From IMG/VR virus record IMGVR_UViG_3300043425_000861: DNA of 64,000 bases. One strand, given 5' to 3'. The notes under the pieces were generated by a model, which searched no databases, was not told the DNA's origin, and worked only from the letters and a program-made list of their open reading frames with translations. The position numbers and the translations under genes are program-made. How positions within the stretch are numbered: position 1 is the stretch's first letter; every line of letters starts with the position of its first letter. Positions 28,398 to 38,630 of the stretch are shown here, piece by piece. The stretch is from a virus.

Positions 28398-28525
28398 ACT
28401 AATAAATATGACAATTGTCACTATTAGTATAAACTTTATATTATTTTAATTTGGCAATATTGCCGTGTTTTTAGATGTTAAAAAAATATTTTTAAACTTT
28501 TATTGATTATATACATATTTATTAG

Positions 28526-28533
28526 TATCTTTG
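28526..28533 (+). promoter_or_regulatory. Promoter for leader 1 / tRNA array 1
   Basis: TATCTTTG (TAnnTTTG), with a TATTTATT box at 28516-28523 just upstream. Confidence 0.65.
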
Positions 28534-28562
28534 TAAAAAGAAAAAACATTAAATAAAATTCA

Positions 28563-28661
28563 ATGAGACAATTTACACATATTATGTCGTTTACAATCTG
28601 TTCAAAATGGGCGGATGAGCGTTCTATGTCTATATGTCTCGATGATACTGATGTTGGTTAA
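28563..28661 (+). CDS. Leader peptide 1 (32 aa, MRQFTHIMSFTICSKWADERSMSICLDDTDVG), candidate attenuator sensor for tRNA array 1
   Basis: Lies between a promoter and a terminator; codons 6-20 include a codon for every elongator tRNA of array 1. Confidence 0.8.
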   Translation: MRQFTHIMSFTICSKWADERSMSICLDDTDVG

Positions 28662-28684
28662 ATTAGTTTAACTTAAAATATTAG

Positions 28685-28718
28685 AAAACCTCGGGACTTT
28701 AAAATCTCGAGGTTTTTT
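28685..28718 (+). terminator. Attenuator terminator 1
   Basis: AAAACCTCGGGA-CTTTAAAA-TCTCGAGGTTTTTT, 6 nt before tRNA-Ala. Confidence 0.85.
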
Positions 28719-28724
28719 GTTTAT

Positions 28725-28797
28725 GGGCCGGATGTCAATGGCAGACCACCTGATTTGCAATCAGAGTGAAAGGGTTCGATTCCCTACGTGTCCACCA
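28725..28797 (+). tRNA. tRNA-Ala(TGC)
   Basis: Anticodon loop TTTGCAA, G3-U70 pair, encoded CCA. Confidence 0.85.
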
Positions 28798-28803
28798 CCC
28801 CCG

Positions 28804-28854
28804 AGTTTTGGAGCTGGTACCTCCTTTTACCCGAATTGAAATTAAAAACTACCA
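28804..28854 (+). pseudogene. Minimal tRNA-like element / tRNA-Thr(GGT) remnant
   Basis: AGTTTT/AAAACT stem followed by ACCA; GGAG-CTGGTAC-CTCC anticodon-like arm; no D-arm or canonical T-arm. Confidence 0.35.
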
Positions 28855-28859
28855 CAAAT

Positions 28860-28932
28860 TCTTAGGTAACTCAATGGTGAGAGTACCTCGCTGATACCGA
28901 GGAGGTTGGTAGTTCGAATCTACCCCTAAGAA
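28860..28932 (+). tRNA. tRNA-Ile(GAT)
   Basis: CCTCG-CTGATAC-CGAGG; TTCGAAT T-loop. Confidence 0.9.
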
Positions 28933-28937
28933 CATAA

Positions 28938-29010
28938 GGAGATGAAGCTAACTTAGTAGAAGCATCGGACTGAAAATCCGAAGGAGTTGGAGCGTAACCA
29001 ACTATCTCCA
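28938..29010 (+). tRNA. tRNA-Phe(GAA), atypical T-loop
   Basis: TCGGA-CTGAAAA-TCCGA; T-loop AGCGTAA. Confidence 0.85.
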
Positions 29011-29072
29011 CAATAAAGTAAAAAATGCTTAATAAAGTGAACAACTTTATTATACAAAAACAACTTTATTAT

Positions 29073-29146
29073 GACCTCTTAGCTCAGTTGGTTAGAGCAC
29101 CTCACTTTTAATGAGGGAGTCCCGCGTTCGAGTCGCGGAGGGGTCA
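29073..29146 (+). tRNA. tRNA-Lys(TTT)
   Basis: CCTCA-CTTTTAA-TGAGG. Confidence 0.93.
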
Positions 29147-29224
29147 CAATACGAATCAACCGGGTGGCTGAAACCTAACTAGTAGTGGAGAATACCCACA
29201 ACCCGGTCAATGTTCGTATTAACT

Positions 29225-29295
29225 ACGGGTGTAGTTCAATGGTAGAATTATGGTCTCCAAAACCATCGATGGGAGTTCGAATCTCTCCACCCGTG
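29225..29295 (+). tRNA. tRNA-Trp(CCA)
   Basis: ATGGT-CTCCAAA-ACCAT. Confidence 0.93.
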
Positions 29296-29363
29296 CAAAT
29301 TATATCTAAAAACATATAAAAATGAAAAAACAATTTGACAAGCATTAGTTAAACTAATGCAAA

Positions 29364-29561
29364 ATGAAAAACAAAGAAGAACGAGTAAAACAAATGAATT
29401 CAATTTACAATTATTGTTTCATTTGTAATAAAAGAAATGGTAGTTGGTATTATGATTGTCACCCATCAAGTTGGTATGTAAAACGACACGGAAATGGAAA
29501 AATCGTAAGACAAAGAGAGTGTAGAAGTTGGAAACACAACAGAAAAACCCAATGGAAATAA
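29364..29561 (+). CDS. Small basic Cys/Trp-containing protein within tRNA array 1
   Basis: 65 aa with CxxC and a C-terminal WKHNRKTQWK. Confidence 0.6.
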   Translation: MKNKEERVKQMNSIYNYCFICNKRNGSWYYDCHPSSWYVKRHGNGKIVRQRECRSWKHNRKTQWK

Positions 29562-29564
29562 TTT

Positions 29565-29636
29565 GGTCTCTTGGTGTAACGGATAGCACGGAACACTACG
29601 AATGTTTTAGTAAAGGTTCGAGTCCTTTAGAGACCT
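29565..29636 (+). tRNA. tRNA-Arg(ACG)
   Basis: GAACA-CTACGAA-TGTTT. Confidence 0.9.
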
Positions 29637-29695
29637 CTGTTCACAAAATATCGTTGTTCACGGTTCGTGAACAGAGAACAAACGTGAACAAATAA

Positions 29696-29768
29696 GTCAG
29701 GTTGGCCGAGTTGGTTTAGGTGACGGTCTGCAAAACCGTTTACATTGGTTCGAATCCAATACTTGACT
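29696..29768 (+). tRNA. tRNA-Cys(GCA)
   Basis: ACGGT-CTGCAAA-ACCGT; U73 discriminator. Confidence 0.92.
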
Positions 29769-29770
29769 CT

Positions 29771-29846
29771 GTGATAGATGTTCGTATGGTAGGACCTAAG
29801 ATTGTGGCTCTTAGATTAGCGGGTTCGAATCCCGTCTATCACCCCA
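29771..29846 (+). tRNA. tRNA-His(GTG)
   Basis: TAAGA-TTGTGGC-TCTTA; G-1:C73 pair; encoded CCA. Confidence 0.9.
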
Positions 29847-29849
29847 TAT

Positions 29850-29919
29850 TGCGGGAAGGTTAGGTAACCCGCCAGGTCTCATAAGCCTGTGCATCCGAGT
29901 TCGATTCTCGGTCCCGCAA
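29850..29919 (+). tRNA. tRNA-Met(CAT), probably elongator; short D-arm
   Basis: CAGGT-CTCATAA-GCCTG; positions 1 and 72 pair (T-A). Confidence 0.75.
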
Positions 29920-29961
29920 CAAAAAAGATTAAAAATATTTTGTGATTTCACAATTTATTAT

Positions 29962-29969
29962 TATCTTTG
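29962..29969 (+). promoter_or_regulatory. Internal TAnnTTTG promoter before tRNA-fMet
   Basis: TATCTTTG with TTTG at 29939-29942, 19 bp upstream. Confidence 0.55.
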
Positions 29970-29979
29970 TAAAACAAAT

Positions 29980-30051
29980 CGCGAGATAGAGCAGCGGTAG
30001 CTCGGAAGGCTCATAACCTTTAGGTCGGGGGTTCGATTCCCTCTCTCGCAA
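29980..30051 (+). tRNA. Initiator tRNA-fMet(CAT)
   Basis: C1:A72 mismatch; GAAGG-CTCATAA-CCTTT. Confidence 0.88.
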
Positions 30052-30053
30052 CA

Positions 30054-30315
30054 ATAGGTGAAGACTGTGGTGGAAGCCCACGGTATATGAATCCCTAAAA
30101 GCTGTCTTGATTCGCGGTATCAAAGCGGTGCGGGTAGAGTTACATATAAGTCGGGAGTAATTAACCAATTGACGAAAATGTATCCACAGATATGGAGATA
30201 TATCTGTTATGATGTTCAAATGCGAACGAAAAACCTATAACTTATTGAGACTAACTCAACGAGGACTTTGTCAACCAGAGCAATGACTTGGATGGTGCAA
30301 CTTAAGGTGAGTTAG
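30054..30315 (+). ncRNA. Unidentified structured RNA(s) between tRNA-fMet and tRNA-Asp
   Basis: Two modules closed by ATAGGT/ACCTAT (30054-30238) and CTAACTCA/TGAGTTAG (30251-30315), with internal hairpins and raised GC. Confidence 0.5.
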
Positions 30316-30325
30316 AATCAAAATT

Positions 30326-30399
30326 GGAGCGGTAGTTCAGTTGGTTAGAATGCCTGCCTGTCACGCAGGAGGTCGCGGGTTCGAGTCCCGTCCGTTCCG
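30326..30399 (+). tRNA. tRNA-Asp(GTC)
   Basis: CCTGC-CTGTCAC-GCAGG. Confidence 0.95.
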
Positions 30400-30406
30400 C
30401 AAATTT

Positions 30407-30492
30407 GGAGAGATGGCAGAGTTGGTCTATCGCGTCGGTCTTGAAAACCGAAGTTCTGAAAGGGACCGTGGGTTCGAATCCTACTCTCTCCG
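30407..30492 (+). tRNA. tRNA-Ser(TGA)
   Basis: TCGGT-CTTGAAA-ACCGA; long variable arm. Confidence 0.93.
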
Positions 30493-30497
30493 CACTT

Positions 30498-30569
30498 GCT
30501 CGGTTCGACTAGTGGTTAGGTCGCATCCCTTTCACGGATGTAGCACGGGTTCGAATCCCGTACCGAGTA
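30498..30569 (+). tRNA. tRNA-Glu(TTC)
   Basis: CATCC-CTTTCAC-GGATG. Confidence 0.93.
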
Positions 30570-30626
30570 CAAAATAATTTTTAACTATTTACACTTTTTT
30601 ATAATTTGTGTATACTTATTAAAACG

Positions 30627-30734
30627 ATGAAGAATATAAATAACATATTGACGAGTACAAGACCACTTACAAATGGTAATGGGTATGGTGTGCAACCGTT
30701 ATGTTACTTATGTTCGGATATCAATAAAGGATAA
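30627..30734 (+). CDS. Leader peptide 2 (35 aa, MKNINNILTSTRPLTNGNGYGVQPLCYLCSDINKG), candidate attenuator sensor for tRNA array 2
   Basis: Codons 3-25 all fall in codon boxes served by array-2 tRNAs; a terminator follows. Confidence 0.8.
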   Translation: MKNINNILTSTRPLTNGNGYGVQPLCYLCSDINKG

Positions 30735-30761
30735 TAGAAAATTATTAAAACTTATATCGAG

Positions 30762-30791
30762 ACCCGAACACAAAAAATGTTCGGGTTTTTT
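30762..30791 (+). terminator. Attenuator terminator 2
   Basis: ACCCGAACA-CAAAAAA-TGTTCGGGT followed by a T run. Confidence 0.85.
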
Positions 30792-30852
30792 GTTTTGTAA
30801 TTTTTTATCTCTATATTTGAAATAGGTTCTTTGACATATTGGAATAACGAAT

Positions 30853-30936
30853 GCCGGAGTGTTGGAATGGTAGACAAGACAGACTTAAAATCTGTTGAGC
30901 TGAAAGCTCGTGTGGGTTCGAGTCCCATCTCCGGTA
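30853..30936 (+). tRNA. tRNA-Leu(TAA)
   Basis: ACAGA-CTTAAAA-TCTGT; variable arm. Confidence 0.93.
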
Positions 30937-30976
30937 CAAACACTATCGTTCTTTGAAGATAAAGGAGAAACATAAT

Positions 30977-31225
30977 ATGGATATATTATCATTTATTTTA
31001 GGAATGTCTATAGTTGTGGTTATTGCGGTTGCAGTAGTTGCGGTTATAGCCTTTGTTAAGGTGAACAGACTAAACAAAGAGATTGAATCGATTCACACAA
31101 TTTATTCGGGTGAATTTGAAAGGGTTAATAGAGATAGAACAGATTCGGAAAGACAGATTTATTCTGTGTTAGATTCTCGACTTGATAAACTTGAAAGTAA
31201 AATAACAAATAGCCGTAAGGCATAA
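30977..31225 (+). CDS. Single-TM coiled-coil protein inside tRNA array 2
   Basis: MDILSFILGMSIVVVIAVAVVAVIAF...; flanked by an inverted repeat. Confidence 0.7.
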   Translation: MDILSFILGMSIVVVIAVAVVAVIAFVKVNRLNKEIESIHTIYSGEFERVNRDRTDSERQIYSVLDSRLDKLESKITNSRKA

Positions 31226-31263
31226 AAATTAAATAAAACTTTCAAAGACGATAGTGTTAATTT

Positions 31264-31335
31264 GGGCCCATAGTTAAAGGGATATAACTTCTCACTTCTA
31301 ATGAGATGTTCGTGGTTCGAGTCCACGTGGGCCTA
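31264..31335 (+). tRNA. tRNA-Arg(TCT)
   Basis: TCTCA-CTTCTAA-TGAGA. Confidence 0.92.
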
Positions 31336-31336
31336 C

Positions 31337-31476
31337 AAAGATAATGGTCTGATGTTATAATTGTTGTCGACTAACATTATAACTACTTAAACAGACAGCA
31401 CCCTCTGCCGATGCATCGTAAAACTATTACTAAGCAGTTAAGATTGGAACGAAACGGGTATTCCAACATTATCTTT
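31337..31476 (+). ncRNA. Unidentified structured RNA between tRNA-Arg and tRNA-Pro
   Basis: 10-bp closing stem AAAGATAATG/CATTATCTTT; internal GTCTG/CAGAC, GTTATAAT/ATTATAAC and TTGGAA/TTCCAA stems. Confidence 0.5.
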
Positions 31477-31480
31477 ATTT

Positions 31481-31554
31481 TGGGAATTAGCGTAGTCCGG
31501 TATCGCGCTTGGTTTGGGACCAAGAGGTCGTCAGTTCGAATCTGGCATTCCCAA
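31481..31554 (+). tRNA. tRNA-Pro(TGG)
   Basis: CTTGG-TTTGGGA-CCAAG. Confidence 0.92.
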
Positions 31555-31561
31555 CAAAAAT

Positions 31562-31633
31562 GCTGATGTAGCTCAACGGCAGAGCAATTGACTGTTAATC
31601 AATAGGTTGAGATATCGTAATTCTCCATCAGCG
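31562..31633 (+). tRNA. tRNA-Asn(GTT), atypical T-loop
   Basis: ATTGA-CTGTTAA-TCAAT; T-loop ATCGTAA. Confidence 0.87.
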
Positions 31634-31638
31634 CAAAT

Positions 31639-31720
31639 GGCCAAGTGGTGGAACGGTATACACGTATGTTTTAGAAACATATGTCAGAACGGCGTGAGAG
31701 TTCGAATCTCTCCTTGGTCA
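31639..31720 (+). tRNA. tRNA-Leu(TAG)
   Basis: TATGT-TTTAGAA-ACATA; variable arm. Confidence 0.9.
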
Positions 31721-31766
31721 CGGAAAACGGTTTGTATGTATACGTTAGGTTAGGAATGTACAGAAT

Positions 31767-31847
31767 GGGAGTATCGCATAGCGGCAATTGCAGAAGACTG
31801 TAAATCTTCCCTCATCGAGTTCAGTGGTTCGAGTCCACTTACTCCCA
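31767..31847 (+). tRNA. tRNA-Tyr(GTA)
   Basis: GAAGA-CTGTAAA-TCTTC; variable arm. Confidence 0.93.
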
Positions 31848-31858
31848 CAAAATAAAAT

Positions 31859-32395
31859 ATGATGAGAACACTAAAAGAACTTATAAAGGAGATTAAATCT
31901 CCCGAATACAAACAAAAACAAATTGAAGAACATCAAAAGTATCTTGATGAGATATCGATGGATTATCAACTAGGTTACTACGTTGGTGAATATATTGTTA
32001 ATCGTTATCTCCCAACGTTATCGACAGATATGATTCAATCAAGAAATGTTATTGAAGTATCTGAAGAGGATTCTATTGAAAATAATAGGTTAGATAGAGA
32101 ATGGTATTTAACAACGAAGTATCAGAATGATTGGAATGGAGAAGAAGATGGTAATAAAGAAAAGTGGGATTTATACCACCAGCATAATAAAATGTTGGAA
32201 CAAAAATACCTCCCTCAAAAATTAGAATGTCATTTAGGTTTAATTAAGTTTAATGACGAAAAAGAATTTAAAGAAGGGTTACGTTCATCGTTATGGGATT
32301 GTGATATGTGTTCTTATAACATTGATGTTGAAAATATAAAAATTGTAAATGATATGGAAATTGGTTTCACCATCATAACATTTCAATTAGTTTAA
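31859..32395 (+). CDS. Hypothetical protein inside tRNA array 2
   Basis: 178-aa ORF between tRNA-Tyr and tRNA-Ile2. Confidence 0.75.
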   Translation: MMRTLKELIKEIKSPEYKQKQIEEHQKYLDEISMDYQLGYYVGEYIVNRYLPTLSTDMIQSRNVIEVSEEDSIENNRLDREWYLTTKYQNDWNGEEDGNKEKWDLYHQHNKMLEQKYLPQKLECHLGLIKFNDEKEFKEGLRSSLWDCDMCSYNIDVENIKIVNDMEIGFTIITFQLV

Positions 32396-32402
32396 AAAGT
32401 TT

Positions 32403-32476
32403 GGACTTGTAGCTCAGTTGGTTAGAGCACTTCACTCATAATGAATAGGTCCCTGGTTCGAGACCAGGCTGGTCCA
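32403..32476 (+). tRNA. tRNA-Ile2(CAT), lysidine type, reads ATA
   Basis: CTCATAA loop; the GGAC...GGTCCA acceptor and TAGCTCAGTTGGTTAGAGC D-arm resemble bacterial Ile2. Two other CAT tRNAs already cover Met and fMet. Confidence 0.78.
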
Positions 32477-32529
32477 CAACAGGTCGTTCCTCCCCAATAA
32501 AACGTTGGTTGCAACATAATAGCAAAAAC

Positions 32530-32603
32530 AGAAGATTAGCTCAGTTGGTTAGAGCATTTGGTTTACATCCAAAGGGTCATAGGTTCGAATCCTATATCTT
32601 CTA
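32530..32603 (+). tRNA. tRNA-Val(TAC)
   Basis: TTTGG-TTTACAT-CCAAA. Confidence 0.92.
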
Positions 32604-32608
32604 CAATA

Positions 32609-32680
32609 GCTCGGTTAGTTCAACCGGTAGAATAAATGATTTGTAATCATTAGACAACAGTTCGAATCTGTTACTGAGCT
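32609..32680 (+). tRNA. tRNA-Thr(TGT)
   Basis: AATGA-TTTGTAA-TCATT. Confidence 0.9.
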
Positions 32681-32687
32681 CAAACAA

Positions 32688-32760
32688 GCGGATATAGCTC
32701 AATTGGTAGAGTGCGTTCCTTCCAAGTACGAAGTTGCAGGTTCGAGCCCTGTTATCCGCT
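32688..32760 (+). tRNA. tRNA-Gly(TCC)
   Basis: GCGGATA acceptor, CTTCCAA loop, U73 discriminator. Confidence 0.92.
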
Positions 32761-32765
32761 CACAT

Positions 32766-32836
32766 TGTCCTTTAGTATAACGGCAGTACAGGTGGTTTTG
32801 GTCCATCTAGTTGGGGTTCGAATCCCTGAGGGACAA
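32766..32836 (+). tRNA. tRNA-Gln(TTG)
   Basis: GGTGG-TTTTGGT-CCATC; T1-A72 pair. Confidence 0.9.
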
Positions 32837-32843
32837 CAAAACA

Positions 32844-32929
32844 GGAGAGTTACCCAAGTTGGTGAAGGGGGCAGTTTGCTAAACTGTTAGGTCGTTCGCG
32901 GCGCAAGGGTTCGAGTCCCTTACTCTCCG
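32844..32929 (+). tRNA. tRNA-Ser(GCT)
   Basis: GCAGT-TTGCTAA-ACTGT; long variable arm; G73. Confidence 0.92.
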
Positions 32930-32970
32930 CTCAATGTATAAACCAATAATTATAATAAAATGAAAATGTA

Positions 32971-34522: not shown

Positions 34523-34554
34523 TTTGACTTTTAAAAAAAGTCATTGTATATTTG
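34523..34554 (+). promoter_or_regulatory. Bacteroidota sigma-A-type promoter for the large ncRNA
   Basis: TTTG (34523-34526), 20-bp spacer, TATATTTG (34547-34554). Confidence 0.75.
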
Positions 34555-34561
34555 TAAAAGA

Positions 34562-35400
34562 AACAAGAAATAGTTCTTTGATTTAAAAATATTGGCCGCC
34601 TATGGTCGATTAAAATAAACCACGAAAGTGGGATAAAGTGACAAACCTTTGGTTGAGGTAAGTTGCGGTTTCAGTAATGGAACTCGAGTAGGCAAGTGGA
34701 ATATCATCGAACCTTAAGTACTGAGGGTGACACTTTAGGGAAAGTGGTTTGATGACCAAGCAATCCGAGTTGTTTGGTTGAGGTGGGAACACCAACAAGA
34801 ATAATCCATAGAGTTATTGTAAGAAATATAGTCATCCAACTATACAATTACGTGATTCAATATGATGGGAATCTTAAAACCGAAAGGTATGGTGAAGTAC
34901 GAGTGGTGTCGTTATCATCCTTTATCGGACTCTACCAAGAGTTTGATTTTGAAGGGGTCCAAAAATATGGTGGCAGGGATGTTACAGAGAGTAGTTTAGT
35001 ATCGAGTCGCTCAAAAGGTGGCTTGGCTAGGTGACGAACCACTACTTTCCAAATTCGGATAACTAAATTTTGTTAATTTTGGTTTAACAACTTAAAATCA
35101 TACAAGAAGAAGTGTTCGTCAGTCGTTGTAGACAGGTGGCTACATAGTCGTGAGGGGTTCACGGCCACAAAGGGTCTCAAGCCCGATGTGATTTTTAAGA
35201 AAGTTCTCTAAACCCGCAAGGTTGAATCAGGGAGGCATCTTTGATGAGTAATGAGTATTAAAAGAGTATATAACGACTCAAGGATTGGTTAATCTAATTG
35301 ACCGCCGCTGATTGGTACTACTCAAAAGGTAGTGGATACGGGAAGAATCAAATAATGTCCCCAAGTCAATCTCAAAATGGTGTAATCTCAGCCCTTTTTT
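34562..35400 (+). ncRNA. Giant structured ncRNA, GOLLD-like (~830 nt)
   Basis: GC-enriched with no credible ORF, has its own promoter, dense in hairpins (ACC-GAAA-GGT, CC-GCAA-GG, repeated CTCAAAAG-type loops), ends GTAATCTCAGCCC plus a T run, and lies near the tRNA arrays. Confidence 0.72.
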
Positions 35401-38155: not shown

Positions 38156-38239
38156 TTGACCACCAAAATATAGAATTATGGGTTAAAATTAGTTTTTTAA
38201 CCCTTTTTTATCTATATTTGTATTAGTTCTTTTATTTAT

Positions 38240-38630
38240 GGGGGTGTCTGGTATTGATTTCAGGTATCAGGGATAAATGGCACGTAGTCAGAATTCATCT
38301 ATGACTTAAATCCACGGTGAAAAATTTTAAGCGGCAACGTTTACAACAATATGGAAGTAGCAGGTTTACTTGCAACTTCTAAAGTAGCAGCCTAACTAAG
38401 TTAGACTCCTATCTCGGGTCGGTCAGGACATATACCTAGGAACAGAAGTCCACTGAAACGGGTCACAGGTCAGAGCTCGTTTAAAATAACTCTGAGACCA
38501 GGTTGTTTGTTAGTTTCGTTCCCACTTATATGAAACAAACTATTTGTCGGTTGAGAACCAATTGAATAAACGTGTAGTCATTTATTGTTGAACAGGAAAG
38601 ACACGGGTTCGACTCCCGTCACCTCCACCA
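38240..38630 (+). ncRNA. ssrA: tmRNA
   Basis: GGGGGTG/CACCTCC-ACCA acceptor with G3-U70, T-arm GGGTTCGACTCCC, tag frame 38333-38395 reading GNVYNNMEVAGLLATSKVAA*, and a TATATTTG promoter element at 38213. Confidence 0.93.

Follow-up and report, generated by a model that had tools for sequence, protein, structure and literature searches.

Multivalent leader-peptide attenuators are known from enterobacterial amino-acid operons, among them the ilvGMEDA and ilvBN leaders, which carry codons for Ile, Leu and Val, and the thr leader, which carries codons for Thr and Ile; the trpL leader reports one signal through two Trp codons. It has long been asked why phages carry tRNA genes and what controls them, and in the full-text literature we found no published account of leader-peptide attenuation of tRNA genes or of phage tRNA arrays. 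Phage tRNA arrays have been discussed as a counter to host defences that target tRNAs (PMC10264068, PMC11555353), and in that work, as with the arrays considered here, a large phage tRNA set could replace the tRNAs of the host. Judged from their abstracts, these papers address tRNA function and do not describe a leader-peptide switch acting on tRNA transcription.

Here we analysed a viral DNA of 64,000 nucleotides (IMG/VR record IMGVR_UViG_3300043425_000861; this whole stretch is referred to below as the window), in which a short leader ORF and a terminator precede a block of tRNA genes. Sequence comparison indicates that the strand at 30711-30717 is probably the region-2 core of a ribosome-dependent (leader-peptide) transcription attenuator situated before tRNA array 2; it is the position and conservation of this antiterminator strand that would turn a small ORF and a terminator into a switch. 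When cultured phages were searched by megablast with the array region, the matches were to single tRNAs only, and a tblastn search of cultured phages with a neighbouring 549-aa protein returned zero matches. Because cultured phages share only single tRNAs with the window, its source is taken to be an uncultured phage. The same 549-aa protein led to 80 related viral contigs, many of which carry both tRNA arrays in the same order.

Layout of the tRNA arrays and their promoter-like sites

ARAGORN, applied to the whole window, predicted 24 + strand tRNA genes in the interval 28860-32930, in addition to a tmRNA gene. The tRNA-Glu gene (ending at 30570) and the tRNA-Leu(taa) gene (starting at 30853) are separated by a gap of 282 nt that contains the putative attenuator 2. 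Within this gap a promoter-like site, an A/T-rich 5′ UTR, a 35-codon ORF (leader 2), an intrinsic terminator (terminator 2) and a second promoter-like site follow one another in this order. The features of attenuator 2 and of the array behind it are as follows.

30588-30621, + strand: promoter-like region and conserved 5′ UTR of leader 2 (ATACTTATTA at 30612-30621), with a sigma-70-like match at 30588-30616
30627-30734, + strand: leader 2 ORF, 35 codons and a stop codon (ATG at 30627, TAA at 30732-30734)
30632-30646, + strand: region 1, spanning codons 2-7 and forming the 5′ side of the anti-antiterminator helix 1:2
30633-30701, + strand: putative sensor formed by codons 3-25, each of which is read by an array-2 tRNA, with all 12 tRNAs represented
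30701-30717, + strand: region 2, in which 30701-30715 pairs with region 1 and the core TGTTCGG (30711-30717) pairs with region 3
30718-30758, + strand: spacer with the stop codon and a small local hairpin, conserved in length and not in sequence
30759-30770, + strand: region 3, the terminator 5′ arm, with the core CCGAACA at 30764-30770
30778-30797, + strand: region 4, the terminator 3′ arm (30778-30789) followed by a T-run
30790-30819, + strand: promoter-like TTG-N19-TAtaTTTG directly 3′ of terminator 2, a possible competing entry into array 2
30853-32930, + strand: array 2, tRNAs Leu(taa), Arg(tct), Pro, Asn, Leu(tag), Tyr, CAT (Ile2-like), Val, Thr, Gly, Gln and Ser(gct), with two ORFs interspersed

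Terminator 2 consists of CCCGAACA (30763-30770), a 7-nt loop, TGTTCGGG (30778-30785) and a T-run, and forms 12 pairs in the consensus scan. Its stem (30759-30789) has a predicted energy of -15.7 kcal/mol, lies between the leader ORF and array 2 and is conserved in all homologues. Leader 2 lacks a Shine-Dalgarno sequence; its 5′ UTR is conserved and A/T-rich, and most relatives have a TAnnTTTG box about 17 nt upstream of the leader-2 ATG. Promoter-like sites of the form TTG-N18-20-TAnnTTTG occur 13 times in the window, 12 times on the + strand, compared with 4.7 +/- 2.0 times in shuffled sequence. The site at 30790-30819 agrees with the Bacteroidota -33/-7 promoter consensus, and these promoter motifs suggest a Bacteroidota host for the phage. 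Further sites of this form were seen, for example, at 29940-29969, directly before the initiator-like tRNA at 29980, and at 34524-34554.

Relatives also keep the promoter-like site at 30790-30819, among them L001, L002, L034 and L038, which possess the terminator and a reduced array 2 without leader 2. Since the site is kept after terminator 2 even where leader 2 is missing, array 2 probably has its own promoter and, judged from this conservation, may be independent of read-through past terminator 2. If array 2 does have its own promoter, attenuator 2 would be an added regulated input, fed by the leader-2 promoter and by transcription reading in from array 1, and not the sole gate.

The CAT tRNA gene at 32403-32477 has genes annotated as tRNA-Ile as its best E. 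coli matches. An unusually short CAT tRNA gene (29850-29920; 71 nt, with a low Rfam score of 32.9 bits) adjoins the initiator-like CAT tRNA gene at 29980-30052, which has a C1 × A72 mismatch, and the identities of the three CAT tRNAs (Met, fMet and Ile2) are assigned from similarity alone. Between the initiator-like tRNA and tRNA-Asp lie 273 nt (30053-30325) that contain no long ORF and are partly kept in L002; this stretch had no Rfam match and a fold z-score of just -1.9. Protein genes also lie inside the arrays: a Cys/His-rich ORF of 65 aa (29364-29561), an ORF of 82 aa with a hydrophobic N-terminus (30977-31225) and an ORF of 178 aa (31859-32395). In L057/L058 protein-coding sequence also lies between terminator 2 and tRNA-Leu, and the ORF that L057 carries as an insert behind terminator 2 is endonuclease-like. 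No confident Pfam family was assigned to any of the ORFs interspersed in the arrays, the L057 insert included.

A motif, GTTCTTTGA(CAT), recurs on the + strand at 30826-30837, 30948-30956 and 34573-34581, that is, just before and just after tRNA-Leu(taa) and downstream of another TAnnTTTG site, and a variant at 38226-38234 stands just before the tmRNA gene. The copy before tRNA-Leu is strongly conserved among relatives, and the motif may act as a signal for processing or as an element close to a promoter. The phage-encoded tmRNA gene itself (38240-38630) lies 5 kb from the arrays, and the C-terminus of its tag peptide reads ..SKVAA; the ribosomes whose stalling the leaders would sense could also be acted on by this tmRNA.

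Pairing and conservation of the proposed antiterminator strand

The first-pass annotation of this DNA had drawn attention to TGTTCGG at 30711-30717 (codons 29-31, TGT TCG GAT), which is identical to the terminator 3′ arm and complementary to 30764-30770; all of these coordinates proved correct. As it had also noted, the strand lies 15 nt past the single Gln codon (30693-30695) and 14 nt ahead of the stop codon, as read directly from the sequence, and the matching of codons to the array worsens around it: codons 26-35 are mixed, with 5 of the 10 read by array 1. An extension of the pairing through ATATCAATA and TATCGAGAC had been proposed as well. It is present, but comprises merely 3 scattered pairs, which are kept in 41-78% of the homologues. 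Similarly, the strand does encode Cys-x-Asp in both leaders of the window (28635-28643 in leader 1), but this peptide motif is not conserved among relatives and is therefore not taken as meaningful. Among dinucleotide shuffles of the leader-2 ORF, a perfect complement of at least 7 nt to the 12-nt 5′ arm occurred in 0.66%, and such a complement placed 8-20 nt before the stop codon in 0.085%.

Homologues of leader 2 were sought in viral and metagenome contigs using a pattern built from the conserved 5′ UTR plus codons 1-3, which is blind to region 2 and to the terminator. Alignment A1 comprises 32 distinct leader-2 regions with a complete terminator. L153 is included, and L177, a true homologue whose terminator is incomplete on its contig, was left out. 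The register was set by anchors instead of MAFFT columns for L180 in A1, and for L057, L069 and L096 in A2. Most pattern matches with other short peptides were unrelated; the dozen inspected were located in other genes with no tRNAs nearby, and these matches were discarded.

GTTCGG, in frame, together with CCGAAC in the terminator 5′ arm, was present in all 32 homologues. In every one of them, 8, 11 or 14 nt lie between the end of the strand and the stop codon, and the strand is separated from the CCGAAC arm by 38-45 nt of poorly conserved spacer sequence. For all 32, the MFE structure computed for the region 2-to-3 segment contained the 2:3 pairing, and the RNAalifold consensus of this segment was exactly the 6-bp GTTCGG:CCGAAC helix. 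The Ser codon TCG within the strand is invariant (32/32); TCG accounts for 6.8% of Ser codons in the ORFs of this phage and 10% of those in the leader sensors. The codons on either side vary, with TGT, AGT or GGT (Cys, Ser or Gly) before TCG and GAT, GAC or GAA after it. That the synonymous G of TCG is fixed while the neighbouring amino acids change argues for a constraint on the RNA, not on the peptide. Leader 2 is found directly before tRNA-Leu(taa) in every locus.

Among 27 distinct rows, the single variable pair of 2:3 was U-A in 14, A-U in 2, U-G in 2 and G-C in 1, and was unpaired in 8; a covariation score as high as the observed one arose in just 2 of 500 shuffles. The C that forms a pair with the leader G has no partner within the terminator of L180, indicating a change specific to 2:3. 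In the 1:2 helix, position 30711 (T or A) has 30636 as its main covarying partner (A-U 20, U-A 10), which accounts for the mismatches of 2:3 at 30711. Direct covariation for 2:3 is real but thin. The 6-nt core does not vary and is therefore uninformative about covariation either way, and part of its conservation has other causes, because GTTC is also required by 1:2 and region 3 by the terminator. As far as the alignment indicates, the evidence specific to 2:3 in attenuator 2 is limited to the invariance, the two G's outside 1:2 and one covarying pair.

The free RNA was predicted to fold into a long hairpin joining 30632-30646 with 30701-30715, together with the terminator (z = -4.9). This 1:2 hairpin is a 15-bp helix in which six pairs show compensatory double changes across the alignment, and none of 500 shuffles reached the observed values. 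It is paired in 84% of cells, compared with 24-45% when the partner was slid, and unguided RNAalifold recovered its outer part together with the terminator. TGTTC is common to 1:2 and 2:3, and CCGAACA to 2:3 and 3:4, which amounts to the four-region logic of classical attenuators.

Predicted energies in the window are -24.5 kcal/mol for 1:2, -13.0 for 2:3 and -15.7 for 3:4, and by these estimates they resemble those of classical attenuators. The barrier of the direct path from 2:3 to 3:4 was estimated at 9.1 kcal/mol. The 2:3 helix is weaker than 3:4 in all lineages (median -10.5 vs -15.7 kcal/mol), reaching only -6.9 to -8.8 kcal/mol in the L057 group. Equilibrium folding of the full transcript was dropped as a means of deciding the switch, as the terminator was favoured with a probability of 1.0 at every ribosome position; because the terminator always wins at equilibrium, the proposed switch must be kinetic.

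The ribosome was represented by a footprint model in which RNA was masked from -15 to +12 around the first base of the A-site codon (an assumed footprint) and the RNA ended just before region 4. In this model 2:3 had a probability of 0.75-1.0 when the A site was at any of codons 1-25 and of 0 when it was at codons 26-36, and with the ribosome at the stop codon region 1 recaptured region 2. Codon 25 is thereby both the final position at which a stalled ribosome keeps the antiterminator accessible and the last codon of the array-2 run, with the limit shifting by one codon if the footprint is longer by 2-3 nt.

Putative sensor codons and the rewritten leader 1

Array-2 tRNAs read 51.8% of the codons in the ORFs of this phage, which gives a probability of 2.7e-7 that 23 of 23 consecutive codons are read by them, times 0.034 for covering all 12 tRNAs, with ATA counted to array 2 on the assumption that the CAT tRNA at 32403-32477 is tRNA-Ile2. 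None of 13,079 ORF windows of 23 codons matched the sensor in this respect. Each specificity is usually used one to three times, Asn being the most frequent with five. The reading frame is kept in all 32 homologues, with distances from the ATG to GTTCGG of 82, 85, 88 or 94 nt, all of them 1 mod 3. The untranslated spacer past the stop codon takes all residues mod 3, and within the ORF third codon positions are the most variable. These patterns indicate that the leader-2 ORF is under coding constraint.

In relatives with a complete downstream array, all 11-13 tRNAs were represented by a sensor codon in every case. Diverged leaders have 84-100% of their sensor codons within their own downstream set, except L085, in which tRNA-Asn was not found by ARAGORN. 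Thr codons are absent from the sensors of L083, which has tRNA-Thr in array 1, and of L170, in which tRNA-Thr lies upstream and the downstream array continues past the contig end. However, L048 has one Thr codon, the L057/L110 lineage has two or three despite a tRNA-Thr in array 1, and TCA codons are present in several leader-2 sensors. Codon tracking in leader 2 is therefore imperfect.

Array 1 is preceded by a corresponding set of features.

28503-28533, + strand: promoter-like TTG-N20-TAtcTTTG upstream of leader 1
28563-28661, + strand: leader 1 ORF, 32 codons, with region 2 (GTCTCGA, 28636-28642) 16 nt before the stop codon
28689-28718, + strand: terminator 1, then about 6 nt to a tRNA-Ala(tgc)-like gene at 28725-28794

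Attenuator 1 has the four-region plan of attenuator 2 with an unrelated sequence. GTCTCGA follows the last sensor codon after 13 nt, about 48 nt separate it from the terminator arm with which it pairs, and its partner in the 1:2 helix of leader 1 is GAGAC at the start of the ORF. Here 2:3 (-15 to -16 kcal/mol) and 3:4 (-14 to -16 kcal/mol) are equally strong. Two types of terminator 1 occur in the relatives; the last two bases of region 2 are ..GA or ..GG with one type and ..AG, ..GG, ..AA or ..GA with the other, and position 6 of region 2 is A only with the terminator type that offers U. As a tRNA begins about 6 nt past terminator 1 and no room for a promoter is left, array 1 can be reached by read-through only. 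The tRNA-Ala(tgc)-like gene at this place, about 6 nt past the terminator-1 T-run, was missed by ARAGORN and has an Rfam tRNA score of 29.7 bits; it is kept in relatives, in which an insertion sometimes parts it from terminator 1.

Array 1 differs among the relatives. In L038, L043, L046 and L033 it comprises Pro, Asn, Trp, Leu, Gln, Thr, +/- Asp, Ser, Glu; L061 resembles this group and has Arg(acg) and Met in addition, and in L057 Thr is included and Asp and Ser are missing. Relatives with a different array 1 keep the start and the tail of leader 1 and its terminator, but the central part of the peptide has been rewritten and carries the amino acids of the array present in each relative. The codon match of leader 1 is 0.65-0.90 for its own array vs 0.20-0.52 for arrays of the other type, and among the 24 possible assignments of leaders to arrays the true one had the top score. 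In our reading of these alignments, the rewritten leader-1 sensors provide the strongest evidence for the system. In L038, L043, L046, L033 and L061, where leader 1 lies upstream of tRNA-Pro, leader 2 is absent and array 2 is reduced to Leu(taa), Arg(tct) and a CAT tRNA.

Proposed mechanism, alternatives and known attenuators

The anatomy of the leaders, their conservation, the covariation of 1:2, and the match between codons and tRNAs together with its co-evolution are features observed in these loci. They can be connected as follows. The leader transcript could adopt three mutually exclusive helices, 1:2 (30632-30646 with 30701-30715), 2:3 (30711-30717 with 30764-30770) and 3:4 (the terminator). 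A ribosome that translates through all 35 codons would cover region 2 or, while at the stop codon, would allow region 1 to recapture it; 3:4 would then form, and transcription would stop ahead of tRNA-Leu. A stall at any of codons 3-25, when one of the 12 tRNA species is scarce or uncharged, would instead hold region 1 and leave region 2 free to pair with the emerging terminator 5′ arm, so that RNA polymerase would enter the array. The net effect would be a feedback in which a tRNA block is made when its codons are decoded slowly, and attenuator 1 (28563-28718) would apply the same scheme to array 1. Ribosome stalling, coupling and read-through are the steps that we infer from the observed arrangement.

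Several other explanations were weighed against this scheme. Leader 2 could be a small gene that stands by itself, encodes either a peptide or a structured small RNA, and is served by a promoter of its own and a plain terminator; transcription of array 2 would then start from the site at 30790-30819, and the GTTCGG match would be a by-product of the 1:2 hairpin and a peptide motif. The promoter-like site after the terminator fits such a gene, as do the modules of terminator and promoter that stand without a leader in L001, L002, L034 and L038, the conserved peptide core (Gly/Asn-rich and ending in Val-Gln-Pro) and the fact that the 1:2 hairpin alone accounts for GTTC. We nevertheless regard this explanation as unlikely, because it leaves unexplained that 23 consecutive codons match exactly the 12 tRNAs that follow, that substitutions in diverged leaders stay mostly within the same codon set, and that leader 2 occurs only directly before the Leu(taa) gene of full arrays. 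Nor does it account for the invariant G of TCG and the G next to it, both of which lie outside 1:2, or for the rewriting of the sister leader 1 with its array.

Alternatively, the leader could sense stalling and have an output other than antitermination through 30711-30717, such as altered processing or stability of the precursor, or a steric block of the terminator hairpin. The steric variant is contradicted by distance, since stalling in codons 3-25 leaves more than 50 nt between the edge of the ribosome and the terminator, too far for a steric block. Outputs of this kind would be compatible with a strong codon/tRNA match alongside thin direct evidence for 2:3, and with the weakness of 2:3 in some lineages, but not with the strict complementarity and conserved spacing, nor with attenuator 1, in which 2:3 is as strong as the terminator and changes with the terminator type; we judge them very improbable. 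It is hardly credible that the 7-nt complement arose by chance upstream of a plain terminator that ends array-1 transcription. It is true that array 1 is followed by terminator 2 without another terminator between them, but the complement has a probability of about 0.007 in the sequence and about 0.0009 at its position, and it is kept in 32 of 32 homologues. The first-pass annotation had favoured selection on the mechanism over chance, a view now supported by the comparative data (conservation in 32/32, constraint at the RNA level, spacing, covariation of 1:2 and the plan of attenuator 1).

If attenuation by the leader peptide operates before both arrays, a sensor that spells the tRNAs it gates implies tRNA synthesis on demand when decoding slows, which is directly testable. 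Tentatively, the two leaders together might let the phage monitor nearly all of the infected cell's decoding capacity, with depletion of any of 12 tRNA species per leader switching on the matching block, for example under attack by host anticodon nucleases or other tRNA-targeting defences. Should this more speculative reading be true, phage tRNA arrays would represent an inducible counter-defence or a homeostat, and not a constitutive codon supplement.

By its sequence, the candidate attenuator 2 has the structural elements of leader-peptide attenuators, namely a sensor ORF, a terminator, the 2:3 and 1:2 helices and a suitably placed stop codon. Searches of 28400-31300 with the Rfam leader families (Trp, His, Leu, Thr and others) and the T-box gave no match at E up to 1, and the only non-tRNA Rfam match over the leader was the trpB-motif at chance level (26.7 bits vs a gathering score of 59). 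T-box riboswitches are similar in that a tRNA-related signal chooses between terminator and antiterminator ahead of translation-related genes. However, a T-box binds one uncharged tRNA directly and does not need translation, whereas the ORF of attenuator 2 appears to be under coding constraint, and attenuator 2 has neither a specifier loop nor a T-box motif.

The resemblance to trpL of E. coli, as that leader is generally described, extends to regulatory codons located in or before region 1, a 2:3 helix weaker than 3:4, and control that is kinetic. The two differ in the stop codon, which lies between regions 1 and 2 in trpL and 8-14 nt past region 2 in attenuator 2, and in the sensor, which has 23 codons for 12 tRNAs in place of two Trp codons. 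Closest are the ilv and thr leaders, which likewise have a short translated ORF with codons for several amino acids and four RNA regions forming exclusive 1:2, 2:3 and 3:4 helices, with a terminator before the regulated genes and stalling that favours the antiterminator. Unlike these leaders, which carry a run of one to three amino acids and regulate biosynthetic enzymes, attenuator 2 would regulate tRNA genes and has a near-pangram of 12 decoding specificities; it is also phage-encoded, with Bacteroidota-type promoters and no Shine-Dalgarno sequence. The proposed switch would extend attenuation to tRNAs as the regulated genes, to 12 specificities per sensor and to phages whose hosts start translation independently of Shine-Dalgarno sequences.
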